Shown in pieces: positions 32,491-64,000 of a stretch of 64,000 bases of DNA. Each line of letters begins with the position of its first letter. Position 1 is the first letter of the stretch. Below the pieces are notes generated by a model that did no database searches, was not told where the DNA came from, and saw only the letters and a list, made by a program, of their open reading frames with translations. Position numbers and translations under genes: made by a program. This stretch comes from Dictyostelium discoideum (taxonomy: Eukaryota): positions 8,192,001 to 8,256,000 of the forward strand of contig CM000151.3 in NCBI GenBank assembly GCA_000004695.1, written 5' to 3'.

Positions 32491-32549
<59 letters not shown>

Positions 32550-42080: not shown

Positions 42081-42545
42081 ATGACAGAAAAGACAGAAAT
42101 ATTATTTTGGAAAGTTTTTAAAAATGATTTTATATTTAAAGAGATATTTAATCAAATTCACAACAATCAATGGATTGAATATGATAACCCAAATAAATAT
42201 AGTGTTTACAATAGATGTAAATTTAAATATATCCACTCATTGAAAGTAATGATAGAAAATGAACTACTCCCATTAATTAAAGATAAAATCAAACATGGTG
42301 ATCACATAGAAATAGATCGTGATTCAATAGAAATTCTTTTCAAAATTATCAAAAACAAATAATAATAAAAATAAATATAAAGATGAAGATTATTTAGAAA
42401 TTATTGAATTATTAATTAAACATAGAAGAGATGAATTTGAAATTACTGATTTAATAAATATAGCAACAAATAAAAATTCACCAGATGTTATTAGATTATT
42501 AGTTAATGAACCATATTCAGTTATAATTTATCCAACAGCATTTTA
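42081..42545 (+). pseudogene. N-terminal relic of a family copy, subfamily MTEKTEIL. There are 93 codons in frame (42081-42362), then a frameshift; homology continues to ...LVNEPYSVIIYPTAF and then stops. The remaining ~1100 codons are absent.
   Basis: Near-identity to the first ~160 codons of copy 11 at 43037, split over two frames and then lost. Confidence 0.8.
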
Positions 42546-43036
42546 TTTTATCATTAAATCCAAAAAAAAAGAAATCAATTTTAAAATAAATTGTTTTTTT
42601 TTTTTTTATTAAACACTCAATTAAAAACTATCCAAATGTTATAAATAAAAATTTTTACGTTATAATCTAATTCTTCAATAACACCTCTAAACTTTTCGCT
42701 TCTATATTGCGCAATTTTTCGAGTAAAACAAGGGAATTATTATGAAAAGTTGATGTAATTTTCAGTAAAAAAAATAATACGTCATCACTTTTTTTTTTTT
42801 AATTTTTTTTTTTTTTTTTTTTTTTTAACTTTTTCTTTTTTATAAATTCTTTTTTTTTATTTTACAAATCAGTTTTTATAATTATTATACATTTGTACAT
42901 GTTTTTTTTTACAAATTTATAACTTTTAACATACATTTATATTATCTTTTTTTTTTTTTTTTTTTTTTTTTCATAACCATCATTATAATTATAATCAGCG
43001 TTTGTTGGTAGCAAAATTAAAAAAAAAACAAAAAAG

Positions 43037-46000
43037 ATGACAGAAAAGACAGAAATATTATTTTGGAAAGTTTTTAAAAATAAATTTATATTCAACGAGA
43101 TATTTAATAAAGTTCACAACAATCAATGGATTGAATATGATGAACCAAATAAATATAATGTTTACAATAGATGTAAATTTAAATATACCCACTCTTTACA
43201 AATAATGATAAAAAATGATCTACTCCCATTAATTAAAGATAAAATCAAACATGGTGATCATATAGAAATAGATCGTAATTCAATAAAATATCTTTTTTCA
43301 AAATTATCAAAAACACCACCAGTACAACTATATAGTCAAATTGAAATAACTATTTTTAGTATAAATATTAATAATAATAATAATAATAAAAATAAATATA
43401 AAGATGAAGATTATTTAGAAATAATTGAATTATTAATGAAACATAGAAGAGATGAATTTGAAATTACTGATTTAATAAAGATGGCAGTAATTACAAATTC
43501 ACCAGATGTTATTAGATTATTAGTTAATGAACCATATTCAGTTATAATTCATCCAACAATATTTGAATTTGCAATTATAAAATCAAATTTAGCAACAATT
43601 AAAGAACTAATAAATTTAGAATCAATAAATTTTAAAAATTATGGTATTAAATTAATCAATGAAGAATTTAAAAGAAAATCATTATCATTGGCAGCACATA
43701 GAGAAACTCTTAAAACTACAATCACTGAATACATTTTTAATAATCCATCATTATATTCAATACCACCACCATTATCATTAATAAATAATCAAAAAGATGA
43801 TGAAGAAGGAATAAAATATGAATATATTGAATTTGAAGAATTTATAGGGTTAAAATCAAGCAGCTTATTAAAATCATTAATGGAATTTGATATAGTAAAA
43901 GGAAAGTTTAAAAAAAATACAGTGAATTCATTTCTCAAAATGTATCATCCATATGAAAGATTAAAAGTTAATATTCAAATTATACTAAAGTATGGTACTC
44001 CATCATTAGATACAAAAGAAATAAAAGAGATTTTAGATAAAATAGATAATATTGATGAGAAAGATTCAAATCATTTATATAAATTACAAGAATTGGCAGC
44101 ATTACAATTCCCAAACCAAAAAAACTTTTGTTTTTATTATTCAAAGAAGTATGGTAGAAATGATGAAAGTAAAGAACAAGTTAATGTTGGTATTCAAGAG
44201 CAATTAGATACATATTCAGATTGGGAAATTGAAAATGAGGTTGAAGAAGAAGAAGAAGAAAACGTTAATAAACAACGAGAGTATTTCAATAATTTTAATA
44301 AATTTAGAAAAGCAACAGTTTATAATTTATCCGAAAGATATTCATCTGTAACTTCTATTTATTTAAATACAATGAAAGAAGGAGATATTGATACAATGAA
44401 AAAGCTTGATAAAATCAAAATTTATGATGGTGCCTCGGGTCCAGTATTTAGATTAGATGTTTCAAGATTTCATTATTTCCAATTACCAAAAGAAAAAGAA
44501 GTTTTAATGAAAGTTTGGGATTATTTAAATGAACACTCTTTTAAACAGATTGGTAATAATTATGAAATTCTCATGGAATTCTTCTCAAGTGTAACAGATA
44601 TAATATCACCATTAGATTTGAAAATTAGTAATCTTGAAGATTTCATGATGGCGAGATTAAGTTTAATGTTATTTAATTCATTGACTAAAAATAATTTAAA
44701 TGTATTTCAATTATTATTAAATAGTTTTGATAAATTTAATTTTTTAAATGGAGTGGTAGTGGAAATGAACAAACTTTTGAATAAAGAAAAGATTTTATTT
44801 GGTAGTGATGGTAAAATCATACAACTTGATAATAAATATATCAATCAATTAATCAAATCAATTGAAATGGCCGTGGAAAAGTATAATAAATTCATTTCTG
44901 AACCAATAGAGAATGGAGTAGAGTCATTTAGCATCATTTTAAATCATTTATACGATCAATTAATTAGAATTAAAGGTATATCAGTCGATCAATTAGATTA
45001 TATTAGATCAATTATTCCTCAACAATTATTAGCATTCAAATGGGATGTCTATCGTATCTTTTTCTATCTCAATATCAGATCTCGAAAATTAACAAAATAC
45101 ATACTCTCTAGGCCTAGAGTTAGTCTGTTTACTGAAGGCAATCGAAATCATTCTCCTCTCTACAATGTCTATACAAGCGAAGGATCTTATACACTTGATT
45201 TAAGAAAATATTTAAAATTAGATTTATTCACATATGATTATATTTTAGGTAGAGAGAATACAAGTAGTAGTGGTAGTGGTGGTGCTTATGAAAATAATAA
45301 TAATAATAATAACAAGAAGTTTATAAATCAATTCGATACAATATTAAAAGAATTGATTAAACAATTATCACTTGATATTTGTACAGATGTTAGTAATATA
45401 GATGAAATTCTTGATGGTGAAGATTTCTTTATGGTTTCATTTAATAAAGATTTAAAATATAGTTTGGATATTGGTAGAAAAGATTTATTTTGGGAATTAT
45501 TAGATTGGATTCAACAATATATGATTAAAAATGAAAATTTAATGAGGTATCAAGTTTATCAATTCAATTCACCATATGAATCATTATTACCAACTAGTAC
45601 AATATTTTCAAAAGTAAAAATAATAGAATTACCACCACCAACAACAACAACAACAGCCACAGTAAAAGCAAAAGAAACAACAACAACAATTGGAAGTAGA
45701 ATATTAAAAATTGATAATTTTGAAAACCCAATAACAAATGAATCATCAGTTAAAATTGGTTGGAATGAAAATAAATTAATTGAACCATTCAAACCAATGT
45801 CAAAACTTATAAATTCATTTAAATTCCAACGAGAAGTCATACGATCAATTTGTAGAGTAATGAATGTAAATGAAATTCAAAGATTTATACAACACAATTT
45901 CTTTGTATCAAATTTCCATATTTTAATTTATTCATGTGCAGTATATAATAATAGAGATGACATAATGTCATTCCTATTAAATAATTATAATATCAAATTT

Positions 46001-46765
46001 AATACATTTCCAATTTTCTCTGAGGAAGAAAAGAAACATTCACAATATTTAGAATGTAAATTCATCCTTGAAAATCATTTTGAAAAAGTAAAGAATATTT
46101 CAAAATTAAAATTAGAATGGCGTGAAAGAAGAGATTTACAATTCCCATTGGTTTTATTAAATGCTTTTGTTTTTTTCCTTTGTAATCAATTCAATATCTC
46201 AACATATAATAAATTCATTCAAAATGAAGATTTAGAAATTAGAAAACAAGCAATTAAAGAAACAATTAAAACATTAATGGGGGTGCACGATGAAGATGAA
46301 AATGAAACATATAATTTAAATGAGAATTTTGTATCGGTAATAAAAGAAGAAAATCATAAAGTTTTACTCATTAAATCAATTATTGAGCAATCAGATACTC
46401 AACTATACTTTAAATCAGCTTTGGATCAAGTTTTATTGGAAATAATAAAGAAAAGAAAAACTGATGAAATTAATTCTCCATTGATTGAATATTGTGGAAA
46501 TTCATTCTCACAAGCTTTTTTTAATGGTGATATTAAAACTTGTAATCTCATTCTCAAATACTATCCAAATCAATTTAAAATCAATAAAGATTCAATCACT
46601 GAAGCTTTACAATTGCAAAATATTCATATTATTAAATATTATTACAAAGTTGAAAATTGTAAAAATTTAATTAATAATTTTAAAAATGATAATAATTTAT
46701 TAAAACATTTAAAAAATGAATTATCAAAACATCCAATTTATAAATATCATTTAACTTGGTTATAA
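43037..46765 (+). CDS. Family copy 11, intact, 1242 aa, of a divergent subfamily (MTEKTEIL...; GASGPVFRLDVSRFHYFQLPKEKEVLMKVWDYLNEHSFKQIGNNYEIL). It lacks the long N/D slot-1 tract. C-terminus HPIYKYHLTWL*.
   Basis: Single ORF, collinear with the other copies but about 55-65% identical in the central part. Confidence 0.85.
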   Translation: MTEKTEILFWKVFKNKFIFNEIFNKVHNNQWIEYDEPNKYNVYNRCKFKYTHSLQIMIKNDLLPLIKDKIKHGDHIEIDRNSIKYLFSKLSKTPPVQLYSQIEITIFSININNNNNNKNKYKDEDYLEIIELLMKHRRDEFEITDLIKMAVITNSPDVIRLLVNEPYSVIIHPTIFEFAIIKSNLATIKELINLESINFKNYGIKLINEEFKRKSLSLAAHRETLKTTITEYIFNNPSLYSIPPPLSLINNQKDDEEGIKYEYIEFEEFIGLKSSSLLKSLMEFDIVKGKFKKNTVNSFLKMYHPYERLKVNIQIILKYGTPSLDTKEIKEILDKIDNIDEKDSNHLYKLQELAALQFPNQKNFCFYYSKKYGRNDESKEQVNVGIQEQLDTYSDWEIENEVEEEEEENVNKQREYFNNFNKFRKATVYNLSERYSSVTSIYLNTMKEGDIDTMKKLDKIKIYDGASGPVFRLDVSRFHYFQLPKEKEVLMKVWDYLNEHSFKQIGNNYEILMEFFSSVTDIISPLDLKISNLEDFMMARLSLMLFNSLTKNNLNVFQLLLNSFDKFNFLNGVVVEMNKLLNKEKILFGSDGKIIQLDNKYINQLIKSIEMAVEKYNKFISEPIENGVESFSIILNHLYDQLIRIKGISVDQLDYIRSIIPQQLLAFKWDVYRIFFYLNIRSRKLTKYILSRPRVSLFTEGNRNHSPLYNVYTSEGSYTLDLRKYLKLDLFTYDYILGRENTSSSGSGGAYENNNNNNNKKFINQFDTILKELIKQLSLDICTDVSNIDEILDGEDFFMVSFNKDLKYSLDIGRKDLFWELLDWIQQYMIKNENLMRYQVYQFNSPYESLLPTSTIFSKVKIIELPPPTTTTTATVKAKETTTTIGSRILKIDNFENPITNESSVKIGWNENKLIEPFKPMSKLINSFKFQREVIRSICRVMNVNEIQRFIQHNFFVSNFHILIYSCAVYNNRDDIMSFLLNNYNIKFNTFPIFSEEEKKHSQYLECKFILENHFEKVKNISKLKLEWRERRDLQFPLVLLNAFVFFLCNQFNISTYNKFIQNEDLEIRKQAIKETIKTLMGVHDEDENETYNLNENFVSVIKEENHKVLLIKSIIEQSDTQLYFKSALDQVLLEIIKKRKTDEINSPLIEYCGNSFSQAFFNGDIKTCNLILKYYPNQFKINKDSITEALQLQNIHIIKYYYKVENCKNLINNFKNDNNLLKHLKNELSKHPIYKYHLTWL

Positions 46766-46842
46766 AACAAAATAAAAAATAATAATAATAAAAATAAATA
46801 AAAAAAACAAATAAATAAAATAATTAAATAAAAATGATAAAT

Positions 46843-46881
<39 letters not shown>

Positions 46882-47429
46882 GTAATGGTTCCATTCATAT
46901 CTTTTATATTTTATATCATTTTTAATCTCATGCAAAATCCAAATTAAAAATAAATAAAATTAAATGAATGTTAAAAAAAAAAAAAAAAAAAATGAAAAAT
47001 AACACAACAAATTCAAAAAGTGGGATTTTGTTAAAAGTAAGAATTTTTTTTTATGGCATAAAAAGGATTTGCCAGTGTTTTAGACAATTAAAACCAGTTT
47101 CTACCAAAAAAAAAATTAAAAATAAATATTAAAACTTTGTTTGTAAATTGTGGTATTTTGTTAAAATAAAAAAATTCCCACCAATATTTTTTTTTTTTTT
47201 TTTTTTTTGAAAAAAGATTTTTGCACAATTTTGATTTAACATTATTAAATATTTAATAAAATTGAATATTATTGGATTGGTCTCCTTAATTTTTCTTTTT
47301 TTTTTTTTATTTTTTCTAATTTCTTTCCAAAAAAAAAAAAAAAAAAAAAAAATTAAAAAAAAATTGAAAAACATTTTTCATGTTCATTTCTGTTGTAAAA
47401 TTAAAATAAATAAATAAAAAAAACAAAGA

Positions 47430-47758
47430 ATGACGGAAGAGATAGAAATATTATTTTGGAAAGTTTTTAAAAATAAATTTATATTCAACGAGATACTCAA
47501 TCAAGTTCACAACAATCGATGGATTGAATATGATGAACCATATAATTATAATGTTTACAATAGATGTAAATTTAAATATACATACTCTTTACAAATAATG
47601 ATAAGAAATGGTCTACTCCCTTTAATTAAAGATAAAATCAAACATGGTGATCATATAGAAATAGATCATAATTCAATAAAAATTCTTTTTTTAAAATTAT
47701 CAAAAACACAACCAATACAACCATATAATCAAAAAGAAATAACTCTTTTTAATATATC

Positions 47759-47818
<60 letters not shown>

Positions 47819-50168
47819 TAAAGATGAAGATTATTTAGAAATTATTGAATTATTTATGAAACATAGAAGAGATCAATTTGAAATTACTGATTTAATAAAG
47901 ATGGCAGTAATTACAAATTCTCCAGATGTTATTAGATTATTAGTTAATGAACCATATTCAGTTATAATTTATCCAACAGCATTTAAATTTGCAATTATAA
48001 AATCAAATTTAGAAACAATTAAAGAACTAATAAATTTAGAATCAATAAATTTTAAAAATTATGGTATTAAATTAATCAGTGAAAAATTTAAAAGAAAATC
48101 ATTATCATTAGCAGCACACAGAAAAACTCTTAAAACTTCAATCACTGAATACATTTTTAATAATCCATCATTATATTCAATACCACCACCATTATCATTA
48201 ATAAATAATCAAAAACAACAAACACAATCAAAAAATAAAAGATTAAAACTATCTGAAATTTTACTTTCAAATTTTAATAACAAAAACGATAATACTACTA
48301 GTGAAGAAGATGAAAATGATGGTGTAGAAGATGAAGATGTTCAAGAAAATGAAGACGATGGTGCCGAAGATGAAGGTGATGAAGATGAAGGTGAAGATGA
48401 TGGTGATGAAGATGATGAAGAAGAAGATGATGATGATGAAGATGAAGATGAAGATGATGATGATGATGATGATGATGATGAAGATGAAGATGATGAAGAA
48501 GATGAAGATGATGAAGAAGAAGATGATGATGAAGATGAAGAAGATGAAGAAGGTCATGACAAAAAAATAAAGTATGAATATATTAAATTTGAAGAATTTA
48601 TAAAATTAAAATCAAGCATTTTATTAAAATCATTTATGGAATTAGATATAGTAAAAGGAGAGTTTAAAAATAATAATGTGAATTCATTTCTCAAAATGTA
48701 TCATCCATATGAAAGATTAAAAGTTAATATTCAAATTATACTAAAGTATGGAACTCCATCATTAGATACAAAAGAAACAAAAGAGATTTTAGATAAAATA
48801 GATAATATTGATCAAAAAGATTCAAATCATTTATTAAAATTACAAGAATTTGCAGCATTACATTTCCCAAATCAAAAAAACTTTTATTTTTATTATTCAA
48901 AGAAGTATGGTGGAAAAATTAAACAACTTGGTAAAGTACCACCAAAAACTCCTCCTCAAGGCTCAGGTTCTGGAATTCTACAATACCATCATTTTTACAA
49001 AAATGAAAGTAGTTTTAATAATCAAGATGAAAGTGAACAAGATGAAGAAAAAGAAGAAGAAGTTGATGTTGGTATTCAAGAGGAATTCGAAATATATTCA
49101 GATTTGGAAATTGAAAATGAAGTTGAAGAAGAAGTAAACGTTAATAAACAACGAGAGTTTTTTAATAATTTTAATAAATTTAGAAAAGCAACAGTTTATA
49201 ATTTATCAGAAAGATATTCATCTGTAACTTCAATTTATTTAAATGCAATGAAAGAAGGAGATATTGATACAATGGAAAGATTAGATAAAAGTTGGAATCC
49301 AGTAATTAGATTAGATGTTTCAAGATTTCATTATTTCCAATTACCAAAAGAAAAAGAAGTTTTAATGAAAGTTTGGGATTATTTAAATGAACACTCTTTT
49401 AAACAGATTGGTAATAATTATGAAATTCTCATGGAATTCTTCTCAAGTGTAACAGATGTAATATCACCATTAGATTTGAAAATTAGTAATCTTGAAGATT
49501 TCATTATGAAGAGATTAGGTTTAATATTATTTAATACATTAATTATAAATAATTTAAATGTATTTCAATTATTATTAAATAGTTTTGACAACTTCAATTT
49601 TTTAAGTGAATTAGTAGTGGAAGTGAACAATCTTTTAAATAAAGAAAAGATTTTATTTGGTAGTGGTGGTAAAATCATGCAAATTGATAATAAATATATC
49701 AATCAATTAATCAAATCAATTGAAATGGCCGTGGAAAAGTATAATAAATTCATTTCTGAACCAATAGAGAATGGAGTAGAATCATTTAGCATCATTTTAA
49801 ATCATTTATACGATCAATTAATTAGAATTAAAGGTATATCAGTCGATCAATTAGATTATATTAGATCAATTATTCCTGAACAATTATTAGCATTCAAATG
49901 TGAACTCTATCGTACCTTTTTCTATCTCAATATCAGATCTCGAAAATTAACAAAATACATACTCACTAGGCCTAGAATTAGTCTGTATACTGAAGGCACT
50001 CCAAATCATTACGCAAATCATTCTGGTCTCTACAATATCCATTCAAATCTAGGACCTTCTGCATTAGATTTAAGAAAATATTTAAAATTAGATATATTCA
50101 CATATGATTATATTTTAGGTAGAGAGAATTCAAGTAGTAGTGGTAGTGGTGCTGATGACAATAATAAT

Positions 50169-50200
<32 letters not shown>

Positions 50201-51617
50201 CAGGAAGTTTATAAATCAATTCGATACAATATTAAAAGAATTAATTAAACAATTATCATTTGATATTTGTACAAACGTTAGTAACAGAGATAGTATTGTT
50301 GATGGTAAAGATTTCTTTAATTATTCATTAAATGCAGATTTAAGATTTAGTTTAGATATTGGTAGAAAAGATTTATTTTGGGAATTATTAGATTGGATTG
50401 AACAATATATGATTAAAAATGAAAATTTAATGAAGTATCAAGTTTATCAATTCAATTCACCATATGAATCATTATTACCAACTGGTGCAATATTTTTAAA
50501 TGTAAAAATAATAAAATTACCATCACCAAAAACAAAAACAACAAAAACAATTGAAAGTAGAATATTAAAAATTGATAATTTTGAAAAACCAATACCAAAT
50601 GAATCATCAGTTAAAATTGGTTGGAATACAGATAAATTAATTAAACCATTCAAACCAATTTCAAAACTTATAAATTCATTTAAATTCCAACAGGATGTCA
50701 TAGAATCAATTTGTAAAGTAATGAATGTAAATGAAATTCAAAGATTTATACAACACAATTTTTTTGTATCAAATTTCCAACTTTTAATATACACATATGC
50801 AGCATATAATAATAGAGATGATATAATGTCATTCCTATTAAATAATTATAATATCAAATTCAATGCATTTCCAACTTTCTCTGAAGTAAATAAGAATTAT
50901 TCACAATATTTAGAATGTAAATTCATCTATGAAAATCATTTTGAAAAAGTAAAGAATATTTCAAAATTAAAATTAGATTGGCTTGAAAAAAGATATTTTG
51001 AATTTCCATTGGTTTTATTAAATTCTTTTGTTGTATACCTTTGTGATCAAGATAATATCTCAGACTATAATCAATTCATTCAAAATAATAGTTTACAAAT
51101 TAGAAATAAAGTAATGAAAAAAACAATTATTATATTAATGGAGATACTTTATAATGATGAAGATGAAGATTATAATTTAGATAAGAGTTTTGCATCGTTA
51201 ATAAAATATGAAAATCATAAAGTTTCACTCATTAAATCAATTATTGAACAATCAGATACTCAATTATACTTTAAATCAGCTTTGGTTCAATCTTTATTAG
51301 AATTAAAAGAGAGAAGAAAAATTAGAACTCGATCCATTGATTATGATGAAAATCCATTCATACATGCTTTTATTAATGGTGATATTAAAACTTGTAATCT
51401 CATTCTTAAATATTATCCAAATCAATTCAAAATCACTAAAAATTTAATTAGTGATACTTTACGAATGAAAAATATTCATATTATTAAATATTATTATAAA
51501 GTTGGAAATTGTAAAAATTTAATTAATAATTTTAAAAATGATAATAATTTATTAAAACATTTAAAAAAATTATTATCAAAACATCCAATTTATAAATATC
51601 ATTTAACTTGGTTATAA
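47430..51617 (+). CDS. Family copy 12, intact, 1395 aa (MTEEIEIL...). It has an acidic D/E tract of about 85 residues at 48290-48560 and a second acidic insertion at 49020-49130.
   Basis: Single ORF. The (GAT/GAA)n tract lies at the position where other copies carry (AAT)n. Confidence 0.85.
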
Positions 51618-51814
51618 AATAGAAAAATAATAAAAAAAATAAAAATAAAAATAAAAATAAATAAAAATTAATAAATAACAATAAATTAAAATAAATAAAA
51701 AAATAAAAAAAGATATTAAATTTTTAATCTTTTTTTTTTTTTAAATAACCTTATCCAAAAACAAAAAAAATAATTTAATTAAATTAAAAAATAAAAAACT
51801 GACTGACATCCAAC

Positions 51815-52666
51815 TTGTAAATTAATTTACATCTATTGTAAACATTATATTTATTTGGAAACACTCACTCTTTACAAATAATGATAAAAAATGATCTACT
51901 CCCATTAATTAAAGATAAAATCAAACATAATGATCACATAGAAATTGATCATTTTTCCATTAAAGATCTTTTTTTAAAATTATCAAAAAAACAACCACCA
52001 CAAGAAGAAACTTTAATAGAAAATAATAATAATATTAATAATAATAATAAAAATAAATATAAAGATGAAGACTATTTAGAAATTATTGAATTATTAATGA
52101 AATATAGAAGAGATGAATTTGAAATTACTGATTTAATTGTGATGGCTAAATTATAATTGAATATGGTTCATTAACTAATAATTATTAGTTAATGAACCAT
52201 ATTCAATTATAATTTATCCAACAACATTTGAATTTGCAATTAAATGTTTAAATTTAGAAACAATTAAAGAACTAGTAAATTTAGAATCAATAAATTTTAA
52301 AAATTATGGTATTAAATTAATTAGTGAAGAATTTAAAAGAAAATCAGCACGTAGAAAAACTCCTAAAACTACAATCGCTGAATACATTTTTAGTAATCCA
52401 TCATTATATTCAATACCACCATTGTCATTAATAAATAATCAAAAACAACAAGAGCCGTCAACAAATAAAAAACTAAAATTATCTGAATCGAATTTAAATA
52501 AAAAGAACAATATTAATAACAGTGATAATAGTGATAATAGTGACGAAGGAAGTGAAAATGATGAGGAAGATTATGAAAATGAAAATGATATTGATAGTGA
52601 TAATTGTGATAATAATGAAGGATGTGAAAATGATGAAGAAGATGAAGAAAACGAAGATATTGATAC

Positions 52667-52754
<88 letters not shown>

Positions 52755-53729
52755 AAACAACAACAAAAACAACAAATACAACTACTACAAGTAAAAAATG
52801 TTAATAAACGACGAGAATTTCTTAATGGTTTTGATATACCATTAACTTTTAATGATTCATCCAGTTCACTAAAAACCTTACTTTATTTAAGTGCAATGAG
52901 AGAAGGAGATGTTGATAAAATCAAAATGTATGATGGTGCTTTTAGTGCAAGATTTAGATTGGATGTTTCAGGATTTCATTATTTCAAACTACCAAAAGAA
53001 AAAGAAGTTTTAATGAAAGTTTGGAATTATTTTAATGAACACTCTTTTAAACAGATTGGTAATAATTATGAAATTCTCATAAAATTCTTCTCAAGTGTAA
53101 CAGATGTAATACCACCTTTAGATTTGAAAATTAGTAAACTTCAAGATTTCATGATGGGGGGATTAAGTTTAATGTTATTTAAATCATTACTTAAAAATAA
53201 TTTAAATGTATTTCAATTATTATTTAATAGTTTTGATAACTTTAATTTTGGAACTGGAGAACTAGGTCAAATGAGAGATTTTATTAATAGAGAAAATGTT
53301 TTATGTTGTAAACTGAAGGAACTTGATAATAACTATATCAACAAATCAATCAAATCAATTGAAATGGTTGTGGAAAAGTTTAAAAAACCCATTGATAAAC
53401 CAATAAAGGATCGAGTGGAATCATATAGCATCATTATAAATTATTTATATGATCAGTTAATTAGATTTAAAGGTATATCAGTCGATCAATTAGAATATAT
53501 TAGATCAATTATTCCTCAACAATTATTTACATTTAAATTGGATGTCTATCGTATCTTTTTCCATCTCAATATCAGATCTCCAAAATTATCAAAATACATA
53601 CTCTCTGGGCCTAAAATTAAAATGTTTAATCAAAGACGTCGAAATGATTCTGCTTTCTACAATTATTTAAAACAATATTTAAATTTATATTTATTCACAT
53701 ATGATTATATTTTGGGTAGAGATAATGCA

Positions 53730-53764
<35 letters not shown>

Positions 53765-54908
53765 GTACATAACTCAATTCGATACAATATTAAAAGAATT
53801 AATTAAACAATTATCACATGATATTTGTACAAACCTTAGTAATAGAGATGAGATTGTTGATGGTAAAGATAGAGATTTCTTTAAGCATTCATTAAATGCA
53901 GATTTAAAATTCAGTTTAGATATTGGTAGAAAAGATTTATTTTGGGAATTATTAGATTGGATTGAACAATATATGAATAAAAATGAAATTTTAATGAAGC
54001 ATCAAGTTTATCAATTCAATTCACCATATGAATCATTATTACCAACTGGCATAATATTTTCAAATTTAAAAATAATAGAATTACCACCACCAAAAACAAC
54101 AGTAACAACAGTAACGACATCAACAATTGAAAGTAGAATTTTAAAAATTGATAATTTTGAAAAACCAATACCAAATGAATCATCAGTTAAAATTAATTGG
54201 AATTCAGATAAATTAATTGAACCATTTAAACCAATTTCAAAACCTATAAATTCATTTAACTTCCAACAAGATGTCATACAGTCAATTTGTAGAGTAATGA
54301 ATGTAAATGAAATTCAAAGATTTATACAACACAATTTCTTTGTATCAAATTTCCACATTTTAATTTATTCAAGTGCATTATATAATAATAGAGATGATAT
54401 AATGTCATTCCTATTAAATAATTATAATATCAAACTCAATGGATTTCCAACTTTCTCCAAGGCAGACAATCAACATTCACAATATTTAGAATGTAAATCC
54501 ATCTTTGAAAATCATTTTGAAAAAGTAAAGAATATTTCAAAATTAAAATTAGAATGGTGTGAAAGTAGAGATTTACAATTCCCATTGGTTTTATTAAATG
54601 CTTTTGTTGTATACCTTTGTAACGATCGTAATTTCTCAACCTATAGTGAATTCATTCAAAATGATAATTTAGAAATTAGAAATAAAGCAATTAAAGAAAT
54701 AATTAAAATATTAAAGTATCACTATGAAGATGATGAGGAAGAATATAATTTAGATGAGAATTTTGCATCTATAATAAAAAATCAAAATCATAAAGTTTCA
54801 ATCATTCAACCAATTATTGAACAACCAGATACTCAATTATACTTTAAATCAGTTTTAGATCATGTTACATTAAAAATAAAAAAGGAAAGAAAAATCTGTG
54901 GCGCTTAA
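51815..54908 (+). pseudogene. Family copy 13, pseudogene. It is 5'-truncated and begins inside a 37-bp micro-inversion. There is a frameshift at about 52160-52420, then an 828-codon open piece with a (CAA)n poly-Q tract of about 45 codons. The C-terminus is truncated: it ends ...KIKKERKICGA* and lacks the HPIYKYHLTWL tail.
   Basis: Collinear homology to copy 12. Relics of the tail (atcatttaactttgttata) appear twice downstream at 54975 and 55125. Confidence 0.8.
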
Positions 54909-54909
54909 A

Positions 54910-55272
54910 AAAATAAAAAAAAAAAAATAAAAAAAAATAAAAAAAAAAATTAACGGAAAGATATTTTTTTATTATGAAAATCATTTAACTTTGTTATATA
55001 AAAATAAATCTTTTTTTTTTTTTAATGATTTGTTTAATTGTTTCTAATATTTACACAGTGGTCATATGGAAATAAAAAAATAAAAAAATAAAAAAATAAA
55101 TTATCAAAATAATCAATTTATGAAAATCATTTAACTTTGTTATAAATAATAAAAAATTATAAAAAAAAAAAATAAAAATAAAAATAAAAAAATAACCTAC
55201 ACTTATTATTAGAAATGATCAATTTTTTTGAAGTCCAAAAAAAGTTTTAAAAACACTGTGTTTTTATCGAAA

Positions 55273-55306
<34 letters not shown>

Positions 55307-55330
55307 TTATTTTTTTTTTTCACTTTTTTT
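54910..55330. repeat. Downstream flank of copy 13 that is duplicated, at about 90% identity, downstream of copy 14 (59690-60110). It includes a tail relic, taatgatttgtttaattgtttctaatatttaca(ca)gtggtcatatggaaat, and tttttttgaagtccaaaaa.agttttaaaaa.
   Basis: Direct string comparison of 54950-55260 with 59745-60030. Confidence 0.7.
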
Positions 55331-55428
55331 TTTTTTCACTTTTTTTTTTCACTTTTTTTTTTTTTTCATACTTTTTTTTTTTTCGTTCATTCAAAACGGT
55401 GGTTAAGAAAAAACAAAAAATAATAATT

Positions 55429-55747
55429 ATGGAAATTCTAGAAATATTGTTTTGGAAAGTTTTTAAAAATAAATTTATATTCAATGAGATATTAAATCAA
55501 ATTCACAACAATGAATGGGTTGAATATGATGAACCAAATAAATATAATGTTTACAATAGATGTAAATTTGGAAACACTCACTCATTGGAAATAATGATCA
55601 AAAATGATCTACTCCCATTAATTAAAGATAAAGTCAAACATAATGATCATATAAAAATTGATCATTTTTCCATTAAAAATCTTTTTTTAAAATTATCAAA
55701 AAAACAACCACAACAACAAAATAATCAAGAACAAACCATAAACAATG

Positions 55748-55826
<79 letters not shown>

Positions 55827-58800
55827 TAAATATAAAGATGAAGATTATTTAGAAATTATTGAATTATTTATGAAATATAGAAGAGATGAATTTGAAATTA
55901 CTGATTTAATAATGATGGCAGTAAAAACTTATTCTCCAGATATTATTAGATTATTAGTTAATGAACCATATTCAGTTATAATTTATCCAACAACATTTGA
56001 ATTTGCAATTATAAATTCAAATTTAGCAACAATTAAAGAACTAATAAATTTAGAACCAACAAATTTTAAAAACTATGGTATTAAATTAATTAGTGAAGAA
56101 TTTAAAAGAAAATCATTATCATTGGCAGCACATAGAAAAACTCTTAAAACTACAATCACTGAATACATTTTTAGTAATCTATCATTATATTCAGTACCAC
56201 CACCATTATCATTATTAAATAATCAAATACAAGAACAACCATCAACAAATAAAAGATTAAAACTATCTGAAACTTCAAAACCAAATAATAATAATGACGA
56301 TAATAATAATGATAATGATAATAATGATAATGAGGAAATTAAATATGAATATATTAAATTTGAAGAATTTATAAAATTAAAATCAAGCAATTTATTAAAA
56401 TCATTTATGGAATTGGATATAGTAAAAGGTAGTTTTAAAAAGAATTTTAATTCATTTATTAAAATGTATCACCCATATGAGAGATTAAAAGTTGATATTA
56501 GAATTATATTAAAATATGGAGATATAATGTTACAACAAGTAAGTGGAGAAATTTTAGATAAAATGAATAAAATCGATACAAATAAACAAAAAGGTTTTAA
56601 TAAATTAAAAGAATTAAGAAAATTAACAGTAATAGAATTTCCAAAACAAAATAACTTTTATTACTATTATTGGAAAGCATATGGTGAAAAAATTAAAGGA
56701 CTTGATAGAATACCACCAAAATCAATTTCAAACCCAGATGAACAAGATTTTTTTCAATACCTTGATAGTAATGAAGAAAAACAATATGTTGAAGAAGATT
56801 ATTTTTTTGGAAATGGAAATGATGAAGAAGAAAACACTTCATTGGAGAATTATAATAATAATAATATTAATAATAATAATATTAATAATGAAGAAGAAGA
56901 AGAAGATGATGATGATGATGATGATGATGAAGAAGATGAAGAAGATGAAGATGAAGAGAATGAAGACGATGGAAATGAAGACGATGGAAATGATCAAGAA
57001 CTACCTGAAATGGATTCTGGATCTGATATAGATATTGAAAATGAAGTTGATGAAGAAACTATTAATGATTTAGAAAATAAAAAGAGATTTATAAATGGTT
57101 TTAATAAATTTAGAAAAGCATCAGTTTATGATATTTCTAATAGATATTCAGATTTAGATAATTCATATTTAAAAGCAATTAAAGAATGTAATATTGAAAT
57201 GTTAGAAGAGGTGAATAAAAATAATCCAAATTTTACATTGAATGTTTCCAAATTTCATTATTTCCAATTACCAACAGAATCTGAAGATGTGTTAAAGCTT
57301 TGGAAATTCTTTGTTGGACATGGATTTAAACAATTTCAATATAGTCAAGAAATATTCCTAGAATTCGTTTCAAGTGTAACCGATGTATTATCACCATCAA
57401 AATTGGAGATAGTAACACTTTGTGCTCCTCTTTTGAGAAGAATAGAATTTTTATTATTTGATACACTATTTAGAAAGAAATTTAACGCATTTGAAATATT
57501 ATTTAAAAGATTCTCTTTTTTAGAACCATTTTCAAAAGATGAATATACTGAACTTTTAAATCAGGAAAAGGTTATATTCAACATCAATGGTAAATTAGTG
57601 CAATTTGATAACAGCCATCTCAATCAAACAATCAGATTAATTTCATTAGTAGTGGCAAAGTTTCACCTACAAGCTTTAAACGCACCTCAGCATCCTAGTA
57701 TTAATAATAGTACTAAACCAGCACAACAATCATATAGTATAATTATAAACTATTTATATGATCAGTTACTTAGAATTAAAGGTTTAACAATTAATCACTT
57801 AGAACTTGTTAGATCAATTATTCCTGAACATTTCTTATCAGATGCACACAGTCAAGTGTTTCGTGTCTTTTTCTATCTTAATATCAGATCTTCAAAATTT
57901 TCAAAATACATAATTGAAAGACCTGGTGTTGATACTTTTATGTATATTTCAGAAGATTATGCAGAAAACTATAATTGTAGTGAACCACCAACTACAAATG
58001 TTGATGATATTGGTTTTGATATTAGAAAATATTTAAATTTAGATATCTTTACATATGATTTTATATTAGGTAGAGAATCAATTCAATCATATGGTACTGA
58101 TACTGTTGATAGTGTTGATAAGTTTAATAATAATAATAATAATAAAAAAAATTATAAAAAGTATATAACTCAATTCGATACAATATTAAAAGAATTAATG
58201 AAACAATTATCACATGACATTTGTACAAATATTGATAGAGATAGAATCACTGGAGGTCAAGATTTCTTTAATTATTCATTAAGTGCAGATTTAAGATTTA
58301 GTTTAGCCATTGGTAGAAAAGATATATTTTGGGAATTATTAGATTGGATTCAACAATATATTACTTTAAATGAAAATTTAATTAAATATCAAGTTTATCA
58401 ATTTAATTCACCATATGAATCATTATTACCAACTAGTACAATATATCCAAATGTAAAAATAATTAAAAAAGAATTGCCACCATCAACAACAAAAACAAAA
58501 ACAACATCAACAACAACAGCAGCAACAACAACAACAACTGAAAGTAGAATATTAAAAATTGATAATTTTGAAAATCCAATACCAAATGAATCATCAGTTA
58601 AAATTAATTGGAATGAAAATAAATTAGATGAATCATTTAAACCAATTTCAAAACTTATAAATTCATTTAAATTTTTTGAAGATGTATTGGATTCAATTTG
58701 TAAAGTAATGAATGTAAATGAAATTCAAAGATTTATTCAATATAATTTCTTTGAAACAAGTTTCCAATTTGCAATTTACTCTTATTTAGTATTTATGAAT

Positions 58801-59616
58801 AGAGATGATGTACTTTCATTCCTATTGAATAATTATAATATAGAGTTTGACATATTCCCATTCTTTCTACCAGAAAGAAGATATTCTCAATATTTAGAAT
58901 GTAAATTCATATTTGAAAATCATTTCGAAAGAGTAAAGAATATTTCAAATTTAAATATAGAATGGTGTGAAAGAAGAGATTTAGATTTCCCATCCACTGT
59001 ATTGAATGGGTTTGTTAAATTTCTTTGTAAAGAAAAGAATATCGCAATCTATAATCAGTTTATTCAAGAAAATGGTAATTTAGAAATTAGAAATAAAATT
59101 ATTAAAGAAACTATTGAAGTAATGAAAATAGAACTAGATGCAAACATTGATGAAGATGAAGATGATGATACTGAGAATTTCGCATTCATATTAAGAAATC
59201 AAAAACATAAAGTTTTACTCATTCAATCAATTATTGAACAACCAGATACTCAATTATACTTTAAATCAGCTTTAGATCAAGTTTTATTAGAATTAAAAGA
59301 GAAAAGAAAAACTGATAAAATTAATTCTCCATTCATTGAAAATCTTAAAAATCCATTCTTACAATCTTTTATTTATGGTGATATTAAAACTTGTGATATC
59401 ATTCTCAAATATTATCCAAATCAATTTAAAATCACTAAAGATTCAATCACTAAAGCATTAAAACTCGATAGAATCCATATTATTAAATATTATTATAAAG
59501 TTGATAATTGTAAAAATTTAATTAATAATTTTAAAAATGATAATAATTTATTAAAACATTTAAAAAATGAATTATCAAAACATCCAATTTATAAATATCA
59601 TTTAACTTGGTTATAA
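55429..59616 (+). CDS. Family copy 14, intact, about 1395 aa from the ATG at 55429 (MEILEILFWKVFKNKFIFNEILNQIHNNEWVEYD...). The track begins at an upstream GTG at 55399. Third subfamily (NPNFTLNVSKFHYFQLPTESEDVLKLWKFFVGHGFKQF...).
   Basis: Single ORF. The ATG aligns with copy 15 and copy 9. Confidence 0.85.
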
Positions 59617-60135
59617 AACAAAATAATAAAAAAAAAAATTTAAATCACAGTGCTTCGAAATTTTTTCGGTTTGCGCTTAAAAAAAAAAAAAAAAAAATAA
59701 ATAAATAAATAAATAAATAAAATAAAATAAATAAAATAAAATAAAAATTAACAGAAAGATATTTTTTTATAATGAAAATCATTTAACTTTGTTATAAATA
59801 AAAATAAATCTTTTTTTTTTTTAATGATTTGTTTAATTGTTTCTAATATTTACAGTGGTCATATGGAAATAAAAAAAAAAAAAAAAAAAAAAAATAATAA
59901 AAAAACATATTAATTTATTTCTTTATTCTTTTTTTTTTAGAAAACTTTTGTCCACGTCATCTTACTGGTGAATTTGAAATGATGTGATCAATTTTTTTCA
60001 AGTCCAAAAATAGTTTTAAAAAAAAAAAATAATTTTTTTTTTAATTTTTTTAATTTTTTTTTTCATCAACCAATACTTTTTTTTTTTTTTCATTCATTCA
60101 AAACAGTGGTTAAGAAAAAACAAAAAATAATAATT

Positions 60136-60450
60136 ATGGAAATTCCAGAAATATTATTTTGGAAAGTTTTTAAAAATAAATTCATATTCAATGAGATATT
60201 AAATCAAATTCACAACAATGAATGGGTTGAATATGATGATCCAAATAAATATAGTGTTTACAATAGATGTAAATTTGGAAACACTCACTCATTGGAAATA
60301 ATGATAAAAAATGATCTACTCCCATTAATTAAAGATAAAATCAAAAATAATCATCATATAAAAATTGATCATTTTTCCATTAAAAATCTTTTTTTAAAAT
60401 TATCAAAAAAACAACCACAACAACAAAATATTCAAGAAGAACAAACCATA

Positions 60451-60512
<62 letters not shown>

Positions 60513-62782
60513 TAAATATAAAGATGAAGATTATTTAGAAATTATTGAATTATTTATGAAATATAGAAGAGATGAATTTGAAATTACTGATTTAATAAAG
60601 ATGGCAGTAAAAACTTATTCACCAGATGTTATTAGATTATTAGTTAATGAACCATATTCAGTTATGATTTATCCAACAACATTTGAATTTGCAATTATAA
60701 ATTCAAATTTAGCAACAATTAAAGAACTAATAAATTTAGAACCAACAAATTTTAAAAACTATGGTATTAAATTAATTAGTGAAGAATTTAAAAGAAAATC
60801 ATTATCATTAGCAGCACATAGAAAAACTCTTAAAACCACAATCACTGAATACATTTTTAGTAATCCATCATTATATTCAATACCACCACCATTATCATTA
60901 ACAAATAATCAAACACAAGAACAACCATCAACAAATAAAAGATTAAGACTATCTGAAACTTTAGAATCAAATAACAATAGTAATAATAATAATAATAATG
61001 ATGATGATAATAATGATAATAATAATGATAATGAAGAAATTAAATATGAATATATTAGATTTGAAGAATTTATAAAATTAAAATCAAGCAATTTATTAAA
61101 ATCATTCATGAAATTGGATATAGTAAAAGGTAGTTTTAAAAAGAATTTTAATTCATTTATTAAAATGTATCATCCATATGAGAGATTAAAAGTTGATATT
61201 AGAATTATATTAAAATATGGAGATATAATGTTACAACAAGTAAGTGGAGAAATTTTAGATAAAATGAATAAAATCGATACAAATAAACAAAAAGGTTTTA
61301 ATAAATTAAAAGAATTAAGAAAATTAACAGTAATAGAATTTCCAAAACAAAATAACTTTTATTACTATTATTGGAAAGCATATGGTGAAAAAATTAAAGG
61401 ACTTGATAGAATACCACCAAAATCAATTTCAAACCCAGATGAACAAGATTTTTTTCAATACCTTGATAGTAATGAAGAAAAACAATATGTTGAAGAAGAT
61501 TATTTTTTTGGAAATGGAAATGATGAAGAAGAAAACACTTCATTAGAGAATAATAATAATATTAATATTAATAATAATAATGAAGAGGAAGAAGAAGATG
61601 ATGATGAAGAAGAAGAAGAAGGTGATGAAGATGAGGATGATGGAAATGATCAAGAACTACCTGAAATGGATTCTGGATCTGATATAGATATTGAAAATGA
61701 AGTTGATGAAGAAACTATTAATGATTTAGAAAATAAAAAGAGATTTATAAATGGTTTTAATAAATTTAGAAAAGCATCAGTTTATGATATTTCTAATAGA
61801 TATTCAGATTTAGATAATTCATATTTAAAAGCAATTAAAGAATGTAATATTGAAATGTTAGAAGAGGTGAATAAAAATAATCCAAATTTTACATTGAATG
61901 TTTCCAAATTTCATTATTTCCAATTACCAACAGAATCTGAAGATGTGTTAAAGCTTTGGAAATTCTTTGTTGGACATGGATTTAAACAATTTCAATATAG
62001 TCAAGAAATATTCCTAGAATTCGTTTCAAGTGTAACCGATGTATTATCACCATCAAAATTGGAGATAGTAACACTTTGTACTCCTCTTTTGAGAAAAATA
62101 GAATTTTTATTATTTGATACACTATTTAGAAAGAAATTTAACGCATTTGAAATATTATTTAAAAGATTCTCTTTTTTAGAACCATTTTCAAAAGATCAAT
62201 ATACTGAACTTTTAAATCAGGAAAAGGTTATATTCAACATCAATGGTAAATTAGTGCAATTTGATAACAGCCATCTCAATCAAACAATCAGATTAATTTC
62301 ATTAGTAGTGGCAAGGTTTCACCTACATACTTTAAACGCACCTCAGCATCCTAGTAGTATTAATAATAGTACTAAACCAGCACAACAATCATATAGTATA
62401 ATTATAAACTATTTATATGATCAGTTACTTAGAATTAAAGGTTTAACAATTAATCACTTAGAACTTGTTAGATCAATTATTCCTGAACATTTTTTATCAG
62501 ATGCACACAGTCAAGTGTTTCGTGTCTTTTTCTATCTTAATATCAGATCTTCAAAATTTTCAAAATACATAATTGAAAGACCTGGTGTTGATACTTTTAT
62601 GTATATTTCAGAAGATTATGCAGAAAACTATAATTGTAGTGAACCACCAACTACAAATGTTGATGATATTGGTTTTGATATTAGAAAATATTTAAACTTA
62701 GATATCTTTACATATGATTTTATATTAGGTAGAGAATCAATTCAATCACATGGTATTAATACTGCTGATAGTGCTGATAAGT

Positions 62783-62837
<55 letters not shown>

Positions 62838-63193
62838 GTACAAAACTCAATTCGATACAATATTAAAAGAATTAATGAAACAATTATCACTTGATATTTG
62901 TACAAATATTGATAGAGATAGAATTACTGGAGGTCAAGATTTCTTTAATCATTCATTAAGTGCAGATTTAAAATTCAGTTTAGATATTCGTAGAAAAGAT
63001 ATATTTTGGGAATTATTAGATTGGATTCAACAATATATGATTAAAAATGAAAATTTAATTAAATATCTAGTTTATCAATTTAATTCACCATATGAATCAT
63101 TATTACCAACTAGTACAATATATCCAAATGTAAAAATAATTAAAAAAGAATTGCCACCATCAACAACAAAAACAAAAACAACAACATCAACAT

Positions 63194-63224
<31 letters not shown>

Positions 63225-64000
63225 TGAAAGTAGAATATTAAAAATTGATAATTTTGAAAATCCAATACCAAATGAATCATCAGTTAAAATTAATTGGAAT
63301 GAAAATAAATTAGATGAATCATTTAAACCAATTTCAAAACTTATAAATTCATTTAAATTTTTTGAAGATGTATTGGATTCAATTTGTATAGTAATGAATG
63401 TAAATGAAATTCAGAGATTTATTCAATATAATTTCTTTGAAACAAATTTCCAATTTGCAATTTACTCTTATTTAGTATCTATAAATAGAGATGATGTACT
63501 TTCATTCCTATTGAATAATTATAATATAGAGTTTGACGTATTCCCATTCTTTCAACCTGAAAGAAGATATTCTCAATATTTAGAATGTAAATTCGTATTT
63601 GAAAATCATTTCGAAAGAGTAAAGAATATTTCAAATTTAAATATAGAATGGTGTGAAAGAAGAGATTTAGATTTCCCATCCACTGTATTGAATGGGTTTG
63701 TTAAATTTCTTTGTAAAGAAAAGAATATCGCAATCTATAATCAGTTTATTCAAGAAAATGGTAATTTAGAAATTAGAAATAAAATTTTTAAAGAAACAAT
63801 TGAAGTAATGAAAAAAGAATTAGATGAAAACATTGAAGATGAAGATGATGATACTGAGAATTTCGCATTCATATTAAGAAATCAAAAACATAAAGTTTTA
63901 CTCATTCAATCAATTATTGAACAACCAGATACTCAATTATACTTTAAATCAGCTTTAGATCAAGTTTTATTAGAATTAAAAGAGAAAAGAAAAACTGATA
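60136..64000 (+). CDS. Family copy 15, 3'-partial (runs off the window). About 1288 codons are open from the ATG at 60136. It is a near-identical sister of copy 14. It is not in the ORF track, presumably because no stop is reached.
   Basis: I checked the reading frame at 60901, 61081, 61501, 62041, 62341, 62701, 62821 and 63001-64000. All are in phase with the ATG at 60136 and give the expected paralogous peptide; no stops were seen in the checked stretches. Confidence 0.75.

Follow-up and report, generated by a model that had tools for sequence, protein, structure and literature searches.

At the locus studied, at least 16 paralogues of 1,300-1,400 codons each lie head to tail in Dictyostelium discoideum DNA of chromosome-2 type; the window is the whole stretch of 64,000 nucleotides that was analysed. 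Pairwise identity divided the paralogues into subfamily blocks of adjoining copies, namely {3,4,6,7,9}, {11,12,13}, {14,15} and copy 16, and tblastn located decayed fragments (copies 2, 5, 8, 10 and 13) interspersed with the intact genes. DDB_G0277643 is copy 3, DDB_G0277585 is copy 9, and DDB_G0277653 is copy 11. The region is already public and annotated, and the genes there are called hypothetical proteins only. A search against 1.84 billion protein representatives returned 26 matches at E <=0.001, including 21 at <=1e-10; among the 10 that were named, the nine stronger ones were from Dictyostelium and the weakest (E 2.8e-05) was a Hibiscus protein. By these matches, the gene family is confined to the D. 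discoideum group. Gene-wide dN/dS within the family is 0.6-1.1, with reading frames of 1,300-1,400 codons kept open. The corresponding locus of another isolate (L004), which covers copies 5-10 only, showed 81-93% nucleotide identity, i.e. 7-19% difference, and contains a transposase insertion. When orthologues of copies 14 and 15 in other isolates or AX4 were sought, an exact look-up returned none of the ACTFIT proteins.

The features around copies 13, 14 and 15 are as follows, with coordinates in the window; S13 and S14 denote the spacers that follow copies 13 and 14.

51828..54900, forward strand: copy 13, a decayed pseudogene that belongs with copies 11 and 12
52135..52228, no strand assigned: palindrome inside copy 13, with arms of 47+47 nt, zero spacer and 91% complementarity
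54901..55428, forward strand: spacer S13, first part of duplication unit 1
54978-54998, forward strand: first tail relic of S13, preceded by an A-run
55026-55070 and 55216-55253, forward strand: unique blocks of S13
55097-55215, forward strand: second tail relic of S13 with its A-rich flank
55372-55428, forward strand: leader of S13, with T-runs upstream
55429..59616, forward strand: copy 14, a listed open reading frame with an intact CDS of 1,395 codons; remainder of duplication unit 1
56450..58080, forward strand: low-divergence central tract of copy 14, with its partner in copy 15 at about 61150-62740
59617..59672, forward strand: junction between the units, a family-typical A-rich proximal 3' flank followed by the 34-nt segment 59639-59672
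59673..60135, forward strand: spacer S14, first part of duplication unit 2, starting with gcgctt and an A-run as S13 does
59776-59796, forward strand: tail relic of S14, with a counterpart in S13
59825-59868 and 59985-60022, forward strand: unique blocks of S14, with counterparts in S13
60079-60135, forward strand: leader of S14, with a counterpart in S13
60136..64000, forward strand: copy 15, which runs past the end of the window; the rest was read from locus L001 of assembly GCA_054883475.1

Comparison of copies 14 and 15 revealed 99 substitutions in 4,110 ungapped sites, an identity of 97.6% that agrees with the 97-98% given by the first-pass annotation, together with 11 in-frame indels; the proteins are 92.4% identical when indels are counted. 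Across 200-nt windows of the CDS with gaps ignored, identity was mostly 96.5-100% (range 91-100%). The self-comparison, which that annotation had named as a check, returned 54906-59317 against 59706-64000 as the best non-self match of the region, with 91.5% identity over 4,469 gapped columns. In L001, copy 15 ends at an intact stop at extended coordinate 64299 and has 1,387 codons. In the full direct repeat, 54901-59638 pairs with 59673-64313, both in the same orientation and separated by a junction that measures about 34 nt; the period of the repeat is 4,707 nt between the start codons, 4,772 nt between the left boundaries and 4,683 nt between the stop codons. The locus thus holds a tandem direct segmental duplication that spans both coding and non-coding sequence. 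At 98%, copies 14 and 15 are the closest pair in the array (the next closest pairs reach 91%), and their duplication is the youngest in it.

The same structure was recovered in the L001 locus of GCA_054883475.1 (18.58 kb), where 0 mismatches were counted and the 3 indels fall into A/T-rich runs of the spacers. L001 reproduces copies 12-15 and runs on into copy 16, and a protein identical to copy 14 is called as a gene in that assembly. The series to which it belongs was assembled de novo from Nanopore plus Illumina reads (PMC12745789), and it is presumably independent of the assembly of the window. False expansion of one gene into two might be suspected in an AT-rich, repeat-rich genome in which one or more assemblies of other isolates split such arrays among contigs of 10-15 kb, but copies 14 and 15 are set apart by 99 substitutions, 11 indels and unlike downstream flanks, and a second record repeats copies 12-15 before continuing into copy 16. 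An assembly artefact is therefore extremely improbable.

The extent of the unit was then read from the spacers. TGATTTGTTTAATTGTTTCTAATATTTACA has 2 exact matches (0 expected) and CAATTTTTTTGAAGTCCAAAAA has 2 matches, in each case after copies 13 and 14 only, and the leader is shared as had been claimed, 55372-55438 and 60079-60145 differing by 2 mismatches in 67 nt. The first-pass annotation was right that the same flank of about 400 bp follows copies 13 and 14, but the two flanks are not near-identical: global alignment of S13 and S14 gave 75-87% identity with many gaps. Their homology is confined to three unique blocks in collinear order, substituted at about 2-5% of sites, between which lie a non-homologous stretch of about 100 nt (55097-55215 versus 59895-59984) and A/T runs of unequal length. 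The unique blocks carry 6 substitutions in about 230 nt (2.6%), which matches the 2.4% of the CDS, so that spacer and gene date to one event. The unit of about 4.7 kb is an upstream spacer plus its gene; its size is as first described, whereas its composition is not, having been given as a gene plus its downstream spacer. S13, as the first half of unit 1, explains the flank shared after copy 13.

The sequence outside the unit is different on both sides. On the left lies the end of copy 13, 75% identical to copies 14 and 15, and on the right lies a 0.7-kb spacer in L001, unrelated to S13 and S14 except for a short tail relic and followed by copy 16 (64993-69237). The unit is thus present exactly twice, and a single duplication took place rather than the two or more previously proposed. 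Had a unit of gene plus downstream spacer been copied at least twice, with copy 13 as a clipped third copy, the same spacer would be expected after copies 13 and 14, as is seen; but the spacer after copy 15 differs, copies 14 and 15 cease to be homologous about 20 nt past the stop codon, and copy 13 is nearer to copies 11 and 12 (86.8% and 85.8%) than to copies 14 and 15 (74.6-74.9%). The spacer after copy 15 and the affinity of copy 13 refute such a history. Since copy 13 belongs to the 11/12 subfamily, there was no copy 13 event of the 14/15 unit that could have clipped its C-terminus.

Copy 13 has decayed on its own account. It lacks about 37-46 N-terminal codons as well as the last 295 nt or so of the CDS and about 55 nt of 3' flank, and its tblastn pieces lie in two frames and span aa 47-1294 of copy 14 only. 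The palindrome takes the place of coding sequence and breaks the frame, the frame change in tblastn falling at 52147/52182. At the other end, gene homology stops at 54894 and is joined to gcgctt at 54901; the missing 3' part is most plausibly explained by a deletion of about 350 bp in an event of its own.

The ends of the units were inspected for traces of the process that produced them. The window contains no tRNA genes, the spacers contain no ORFs and match no transposase, and at the boundaries the sequence is either unique or made of simple A/T runs. A transposon- or tRNA-associated duplication, for which a mobile-element gene, terminal repeats or a tRNA gene would be expected at the boundaries, was ruled out. 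Tail relics, present in several spacers, show that breaks have fallen repeatedly at the gene's 3' end. The longest tract that copy 14 shares exactly with the 11/12/13 subfamily covers the last 108 nt of the CDS. Past the stop codon, copy 14 has a proximal 3' flank typical of the family, and copy 15 has a different one. The segment 59639-59672 has no other match within 69.6 kb, and we propose that it is either what remains of the 3' flank that copy 13 once had or filler at the junction.

The duplication and its extent, the presence of two units instead of three, the separate origin of copy 13, the two intact frames and the uneven divergence are direct observations; from them we infer a crossover mechanism, a conversion tract and an order of events, and the whole is a probable account of the locus. 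In a single event, about 4.7-4.8 kb of DNA, consisting of the 0.5-kb spacer with promoter and leader and the whole gene, was duplicated in tandem and gave rise to copies 14 and 15, most likely through unequal crossing-over between misaligned neighbouring paralogues. The partners would have been two ancestral genes, one that of copy 13 and the other that of copies 14 and 15, and the exchange may have occurred in the near-invariant last 100 nt or so of the CDS or in the A-rich sequence just past the stop. Copy 14 would thereby have gained the former 3' flank of copy 13 (the junction and S14), and copy 15 would have kept its own. The two copies would afterwards have diverged independently by the 99 substitutions and by slippage in N/D/E/T runs, which would account for the 11 in-frame indels, and the central 1.5 kb or so would probably have been re-homogenised by gene conversion between them. 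Copy 13, a pseudogene already or later, would have lost about 350 nt (the CDS end and proximal flank) in its separate deletion.

Because copy 14 carries no chimeric signature and is copy 15-like right up to the stop codon, the crossover point is placed solely by the end of homology. The parental flank of copy 13, with which that of copy 14 would be compared, is deleted, and 59639-59672 has no surviving counterpart, so that its derivation from copy 13 is putative. The absence of chimerism would suit a replicative duplication without homologous recombination, by template switch or a microhomology-mediated process, with breakpoints at 54901 and about 59672. Such a process would also fit the head-to-tail abutment of the units at a short unique junction without other match, and fold-back or template-switch lesions do occur in the array, as the palindrome of copy 13 illustrates. 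It assumes that copy 13 was truncated beforehand and that the sequence after copy 15 was altered later. The left breakpoint at 54901 would then have to lie no more than about 6 nt from position 54894, at which the homology of copy 13 to its relatives ends, and a second event would have to delete the counterpart of 59639-59672 after copy 15; unequal crossing-over requires neither coincidence, and we regard the replicative route as unlikely.

The age of the duplication and the selection on its products were estimated from the coding sequences. For copies 14 and 15, dS is 0.038 and dN/dS is 0.57. The chance of no stop codon arising after 99 random substitutions is 0.0018, and selection has kept both reading frames open. 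The in-frame indels are weak evidence for selection, because 3n indels are frequent among the mutations of D. discoideum (PMC7466956). If the published rate of 2.47e-11 base substitutions per site per generation is applied (PMC7466956), dS would correspond to on the order of 10^8-10^9 cell generations, with the clock blurred by probable gene conversion between the copies. The duplication, which had been called recent, is so in the relative sense of being the youngest in the array.

Divergence between copies 14 and 15 is uneven along the gene. The best 1,500-site window contained 17 differences versus 36 expected (permutation p=0.0006), and the longest identical run was 441 nt (p=0.0016). In the central tract, whose bounds were set after seeing the data, pS was 0.022 versus 0.063 and 0.036 in the flanking parts, and pN was lowered too; this tract is the region most divergent between subfamilies. 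A donor paralogue for the clustered differences was sought and none was found: the derived states number 38 versus 34 in the two copies and are nearly all private to one or the other, and a set so private and evenly split points to no third paralogue as donor. The comparison suggests that the central 1.5 kb or so is probably a later gene-conversion tract, and regional differences in mutation rate or small numbers could add to its low divergence.

If conversion had continued throughout, the duplication could be much older than it looks, with copies 14 and 15 kept alike by concerted evolution and their identity undatable. This would suit the significantly uneven divergence, with the central 1.5 kb or so more than 2-fold less diverged in both pS and pN, the similar near-identical patches between copies 11 and 12 and between copies 3 and 4, and the poor overall alignment of the spacers. 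Yet the unique, non-repetitive spacer blocks are as diverged as the CDS, so that conversion would need to have covered the non-coding spacer too, and the poor alignment is due to indels and to slippage in A/T runs, a very common process in D. discoideum (PMC7466956). We consider an older, continually converted pair quite unlikely and retain the single duplication followed by local conversion.

The proteins were searched for clues to function, and neither a domain nor a fold could be recognised for the family. A Pfam scan of ten family proteins (eight intact copies, copy 1 and the copy 13 fragment) gave sub-threshold or marginal matches only, PAS_13, DDHD and DUF3439 being noise; Ank_2 (PF12796) reached 28.6 bits versus a cut-off of 27.3 in copy 12 alone, with copy 14 and the others below it (n=10). 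No signal peptide or hydrophobic segment of transmembrane strength was found by hydropathy. AlphaFold2 gave an all-helical model of low confidence for residues 535-1395 (pLDDT 52) and another of low confidence for residues 1-445 (pLDDT 46), in which helix pairs at 50-90 and 135-250 are the only structure. Foldseek against the PDB returned nothing below E=0.01, and the matches were generic helical-repeat proteins only (TM-scores <=0.22). A likeness to the InsP3 receptor guessed by I-TASSER for DDB_G0277585 (PMC8280847) is probably the same generic helical-repeat signal. The literature on the gene identifiers of the array comprised this I-TASSER note and one mention of DDB_G0277581, no more. DDB_G0277581 is described in the literature as a prestalk gene, and it may or may not belong to the array family.

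Taken by itself, the duplication is of little weight, being a textbook young tandem duplicate in an annotated public region. In D. discoideum base substitutions arise extremely rarely, and the measured rate of duplication is low as well (PMC7466956, PMC9849192). The locus is of some use as a clean worked example in which a duplicated unit is found together with a probable conversion tract, indels from slippage, a lesion of the fold-back type and the deletion of a gene end. More interesting than the duplicate is the fast-evolving orphan family, whose dN/dS lies near 1, whose frames are intact and which differs strongly from isolate to isolate. A pattern of orphan, fast-evolving and isolate-variable genes is typical of families that act in self/non-self recognition, in cheating or in defence, and of selfish elements. 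Tentatively, and against the odds, the 14/15 duplication may be the most recent addition to a family driven by conflict, in which case diversifying selection would act on copy number and allele content here as a polymorphic trait.

Several known systems offer comparisons. Members of the tgr family (TgrB/TgrC) are marked by IPT/TIG domains, a signal peptide and a transmembrane anchor. Membership of the array proteins in that family was rejected, as no IPT/TIG or other such Pfam match and no transmembrane-strength segment was found. The hypervariable tgrB/C locus (PMC12745789) is alike in that a lineage-specific family has been duplicated, fragmented and recombined locally in the same group of organisms. 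The present array also differs strongly between isolates (L004), but it lies on chromosome-2-type sequence and not at the tgr locus. To our knowledge, its family has no link to allorecognition. The AX4 chromosome 2 duplication is a large laboratory-strain event, found in AX4 and not found in the AX2-214 assembly (PMC12745789). It is also on D. discoideum chromosome 2; the 14/15 unit, on the other hand, measures 4.7 kb, is 2.4% diverged and is present in GCA_054883475.1, which we take to be AX2-214. Birth-and-death evolution by unequal crossing-over is known for MHC, olfactory-receptor and similar multigene arrays. The array shares with these its head-to-tail paralogues, subfamily blocks, mixture of intact and decayed copies and patchy conversion between neighbours, and is particular in the breakpoint at the conserved gene 3' terminus and in the short tail relics of its spacers. 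The 14/15 duplication is a case of the ordinary birth-and-death evolution of a tandem array.

Ten of the 16 paralogues in the array are intact, and copies 14 and 15 are neighbours among them. Their duplication is real and had been rightly picked out, but it is of an ordinary kind: one tandem gene duplication, in an array that evolves by birth and death, in which copy 13 had no part. The locus L001 in a second assembly, GCA_054883475.1, reaches 5.6 kb past the window end and was joined to the window to give extended coordinates, which are the same as window coordinates. Against window 45420-64000 (18.58 kb), L001 showed 0 mismatches and 3 indels totalling 10 nt, all in A/T-rich spacer runs. These sole differences, at 46875-46880, 55293-55295 and 59679, fit either two closely related laboratory strains or an error in homopolymer length in one of the assemblies. 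The annotation of GCA_054883475.1 has a gene encoding the exact copy 14 protein at L001. The laboratory strain AX2-214 is among the PRJNA1300491 assemblies, which were built de novo from Nanopore and Illumina reads (PMC12745789); we infer that GCA_054883475.1 is a member of this series, namely the AX2-214 assembly. The locus is already in public assemblies and its novelty is low; no literature description of it was found.

The window has a G+C content of 19-25%, and its + strand carries a row of large ORFs of ~1,240-1,407 codons; over all intact copies the frames span 1,240-1,414 codons. Poly-N, poly-D/E and poly-T runs are abundant in the translated ORFs, the top protein matches of which are D. 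discoideum hypothetical proteins. The AX4 proteins DDB_G0277643 and DDB_G0277585 are copy 3 (6851-10750) and copy 9 (from 36816), both at 100% identity; DDB_G0277653 corresponds to copy 11 at 98.7%, where one predicted intron makes the difference. The identical AX4 proteins suggest that the window is AX4-like. A tblastn search of the 69.6 kb extended sequence with copy 14 as query placed all 16 members on the + strand.

Members of the array (+ strand)
Copy 1: begins upstream of the window; called as 1,327 aa in locus L002 of the other assembly
Copies 3, 4, 6, 7, 9, 11, 12, 14, 15, 16: intact
Copies 2, 5, 8, 10, 13: decayed (fragmented, frameshifted or truncated)
4172-6611, 18623-22398, 32157-34671, 42096-42555: copies 2, 5, 8 and 10, respectively; split over different frames, with large deletions inside the copies or at their ends

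The other assembly predicts these four decayed copies as several short proteins, e.g., ACTFIT_004886 and ACTFIT_004908, and its annotation also places a 170-aa gene on the minus strand of the long spacer that separates copy 3 from copy 4 (10962-11730; L002 14112-14880). By nucleotide identity in the codon alignment, the copies fall into subfamily blocks {3,4,6,7,9} (86-91%), {11,12} (91%) and {14,15} (98%), with 77-80% between blocks; copy 16 stands alone at ~80% to copies 14 and 15.

In a self-BLAST of 51800-64000, the comparison proposed by the first-pass annotation, the top non-self match joined 54906-59317 with 59706-64000 (91.5% over 4,469 columns). The identity of 97-98% estimated there by eye agreed with the 97.6% measured in the codon alignment (99 substitutions in 4,110 ungapped sites). 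Coding identity per 200-column window, gaps ignored, was mostly 96.5-100%, with dips of 91-94% near low-complexity runs and at 58012-58393. The 11 indel events were all multiples of three, the majority in N, D/E or T runs, and protein identity with gaps counted was 92.4%. Full-length copy 15, taken from L001, is ~98% identical to copy 14 up to the stop codon, and the homology stops ~20 nt beyond. The window end (64000) lies within ~6 nt of the copy 15 position matching the truncation point of copy 13 (54894), which merely reflects the chance position of the cut, because copy 15 continues intact in L001.

The spacers after copy 13 (S13) and copy 14 (S14) share a start, 'gcgctt' plus an A-run, at 54901 and 59673. 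The spacer motifs picked out by eye occurred each only after these two copies, with 0-0.02 chance matches expected. Behind copy 15, the spacer (extended 64300-64992) shares only a short gene-tail relic with S13 and S14 and is otherwise unrelated to them; the repeated unit is therefore spacer plus gene, present exactly twice, and not a gene with its downstream spacer copied at least twice, as had been proposed. The flank behind copy 13 is the front half of unit 1 and does not testify to a further copying event.

Duplication units and collinear unique blocks of their spacers
54901-59638: unit 1, spacer and gene (copy 14)
59673-64313: unit 2, spacer and gene (copy 15)
54949-55075 / 59748-59868: S13/S14 block
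55216-55253 / 59985-60022: S13/S14 block
55372-55438 / 60079-60145: S13/S14 block

The flanks had been described as near-identical, which holds for the three blocks (together ~6 substitutions in ~230 nt) but not for the spacers overall, where global identity is only 75-87% because of a non-homologous segment between the blocks (55097-55215 versus 59895-59984) and A/T runs of unequal length. In D. discoideum, the slippage/indel rate is very high relative to substitutions (PMC7466956).

Copy 13 had been regarded as a clipped copy of the same unit, but over 52791-54894 its identity is 86.8% to copy 11 and 85.8% to copy 12, against only 74.6-74.9% to copies 14 and 15, and it thus lies outside the 14/15 lineage. 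It is a pseudogene, lacking the first 37-46 codons, any leader, the last ~295 nt of coding sequence and ~55 nt of proximal flank, the A-rich sequence just 3' of the stop. Inside it, a zero-spacer palindrome (52135-52228; 47+47 nt, 91% complementary) puts the adjoining downstream codons ('LVNEPYSIIIYP'), in inverted form, where '...KTYSPDIIRL' codons belong; replication errors by fold-back or template switching would be expected to leave such a lesion.

The left edge of the S13/S14 homology (54901) lies ~6 nt from 54894, the point beyond which copy 13 no longer matches its relatives. Under simple replicative tandem duplication this proximity would be a coincidence, so we favour unequal crossing-over, as does the family-typical proximal flank (aaaacaaaataataaaa...), present after copy 14 and not after copy 15. 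S14 with the junction between the units (59617-59672) would then represent the whole 3' flank that copy 13 once had, and the present edge at 54901 would mark where a later deletion, affecting copy 13, ended on the right. A plausible substrate for the misaligned exchange would be the terminal 108 nt of coding sequence, where the 11/12/13 subfamily and copy 14 have their longest stretch of exact identity. Copy 14 shows no chimerism and junction segment 59639-59672 has no other match, both of which temper the preference for crossing-over. Several spacers contain tail relics, each comprising the final 25-50 nt of the gene with its stop ('...HLTLL*'), which suggests that breakage or exchange recurs at the conserved gene terminus.

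Tail relics
54978-54998
55124-55144
59776-59796
40565-40585
L001 ~18957-18982 (extended ~64385-64410)

The relic at 55097-55215 retains ~40 nt of A-rich 3' flank and is 85.6% identical to the copy 12 end. Behind copy 9, the relic repeats the genuine gene end in tandem over 63 nt.

When eight other paralogues were used to polarise the 99 differences, copy 14 carried the derived state at 38 and copy 15 at 34, with 27 ambiguous. The derived states are nearly all private, which indicates that the two copies diverged independently rather than by import from a third copy. Copy-14-private changes, several non-synonymous, cluster at 58149-58367 (11/17 differences derived in copy 14, 2/17 in copy 15), within the family's most conserved block (DFFNHSLNADLKFSLDIGRKD...QQYMIKNENL); no donor paralogue for the cluster was found in the 69.6 kb examined. 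Between copies 14 and 15, dS was 0.038, dN 0.021 and dN/dS 0.57. Selection has kept both frames open, because only 0.18% of trials stayed open when 99 substitutions were simulated with the observed spectrum; the in-frame indels add little evidence, as 3n indels are common mutations in D. discoideum (PMC7466956).

Divergence varies along the gene: in the central ~1.5 kb, where 36 differences would be expected, 17 were seen (permutation p=0.0006), and the copies agree without interruption over as much as 441 nt (p=0.0016). Both pS and pN drop in this tract, with pS/pN values of 0.022/0.009, compared with 0.063/0.030 on its 5' side and 0.036/0.028 on its 3' side. Later gene conversion between copies 14 and 15 fits this tract better than constraint, since subfamilies diverge most in this very region (copy 14 differs from copy 16 by 26-49%). 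Near-identical patches were also seen between copies 11 and 12 and between copies 3 and 4. Dating by percent identity, as earlier suggested, did yield a figure of ~8e8 cell generations (dS/2 at 2.47e-11 substitutions per site per generation; PMC7466956), but a rough one only, because of uneven divergence and probable conversion.

A HMMER search of 1.84 billion representative proteins gave 26 matches at E-value <=0.001 and 21 at <=1e-10. Among ten previously unnamed matches that were identified, the nine stronger came from D. discoideum, D. cf. discoideum or D. dimigraforme. The tenth, a Hibiscus protein with the poorest E-value (2.8e-05), is most likely a chance match. Pfam scans revealed no consistent domain in the family proteins, no hydrophobic segment of transmembrane strength was found in them, and the all-helical, low-confidence structure models had no significant fold match. 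Family-wide dN/dS between intact paralogues was 0.57-1.09, with the frames remaining open. In another D. discoideum isolate (ACTFIR), the syntenic locus (L004; GCA_054859385.1 JBTAPF010000017.1, 260687-283268, reversed) is only 81-93% identical in nucleotides to window 22100-42400; it differs in which copies are intact and which are fragments, and it carries one further gene.

Additional gene in L004
12944-14338, opposite strand: DDE_1 transposase gene

The array locus appears highly variable between isolates. The family is confined to the D. discoideum group and shows the pattern of a lineage-specific family that evolves fast; this family-level evolutionary pattern is the sole part that might repay more work.
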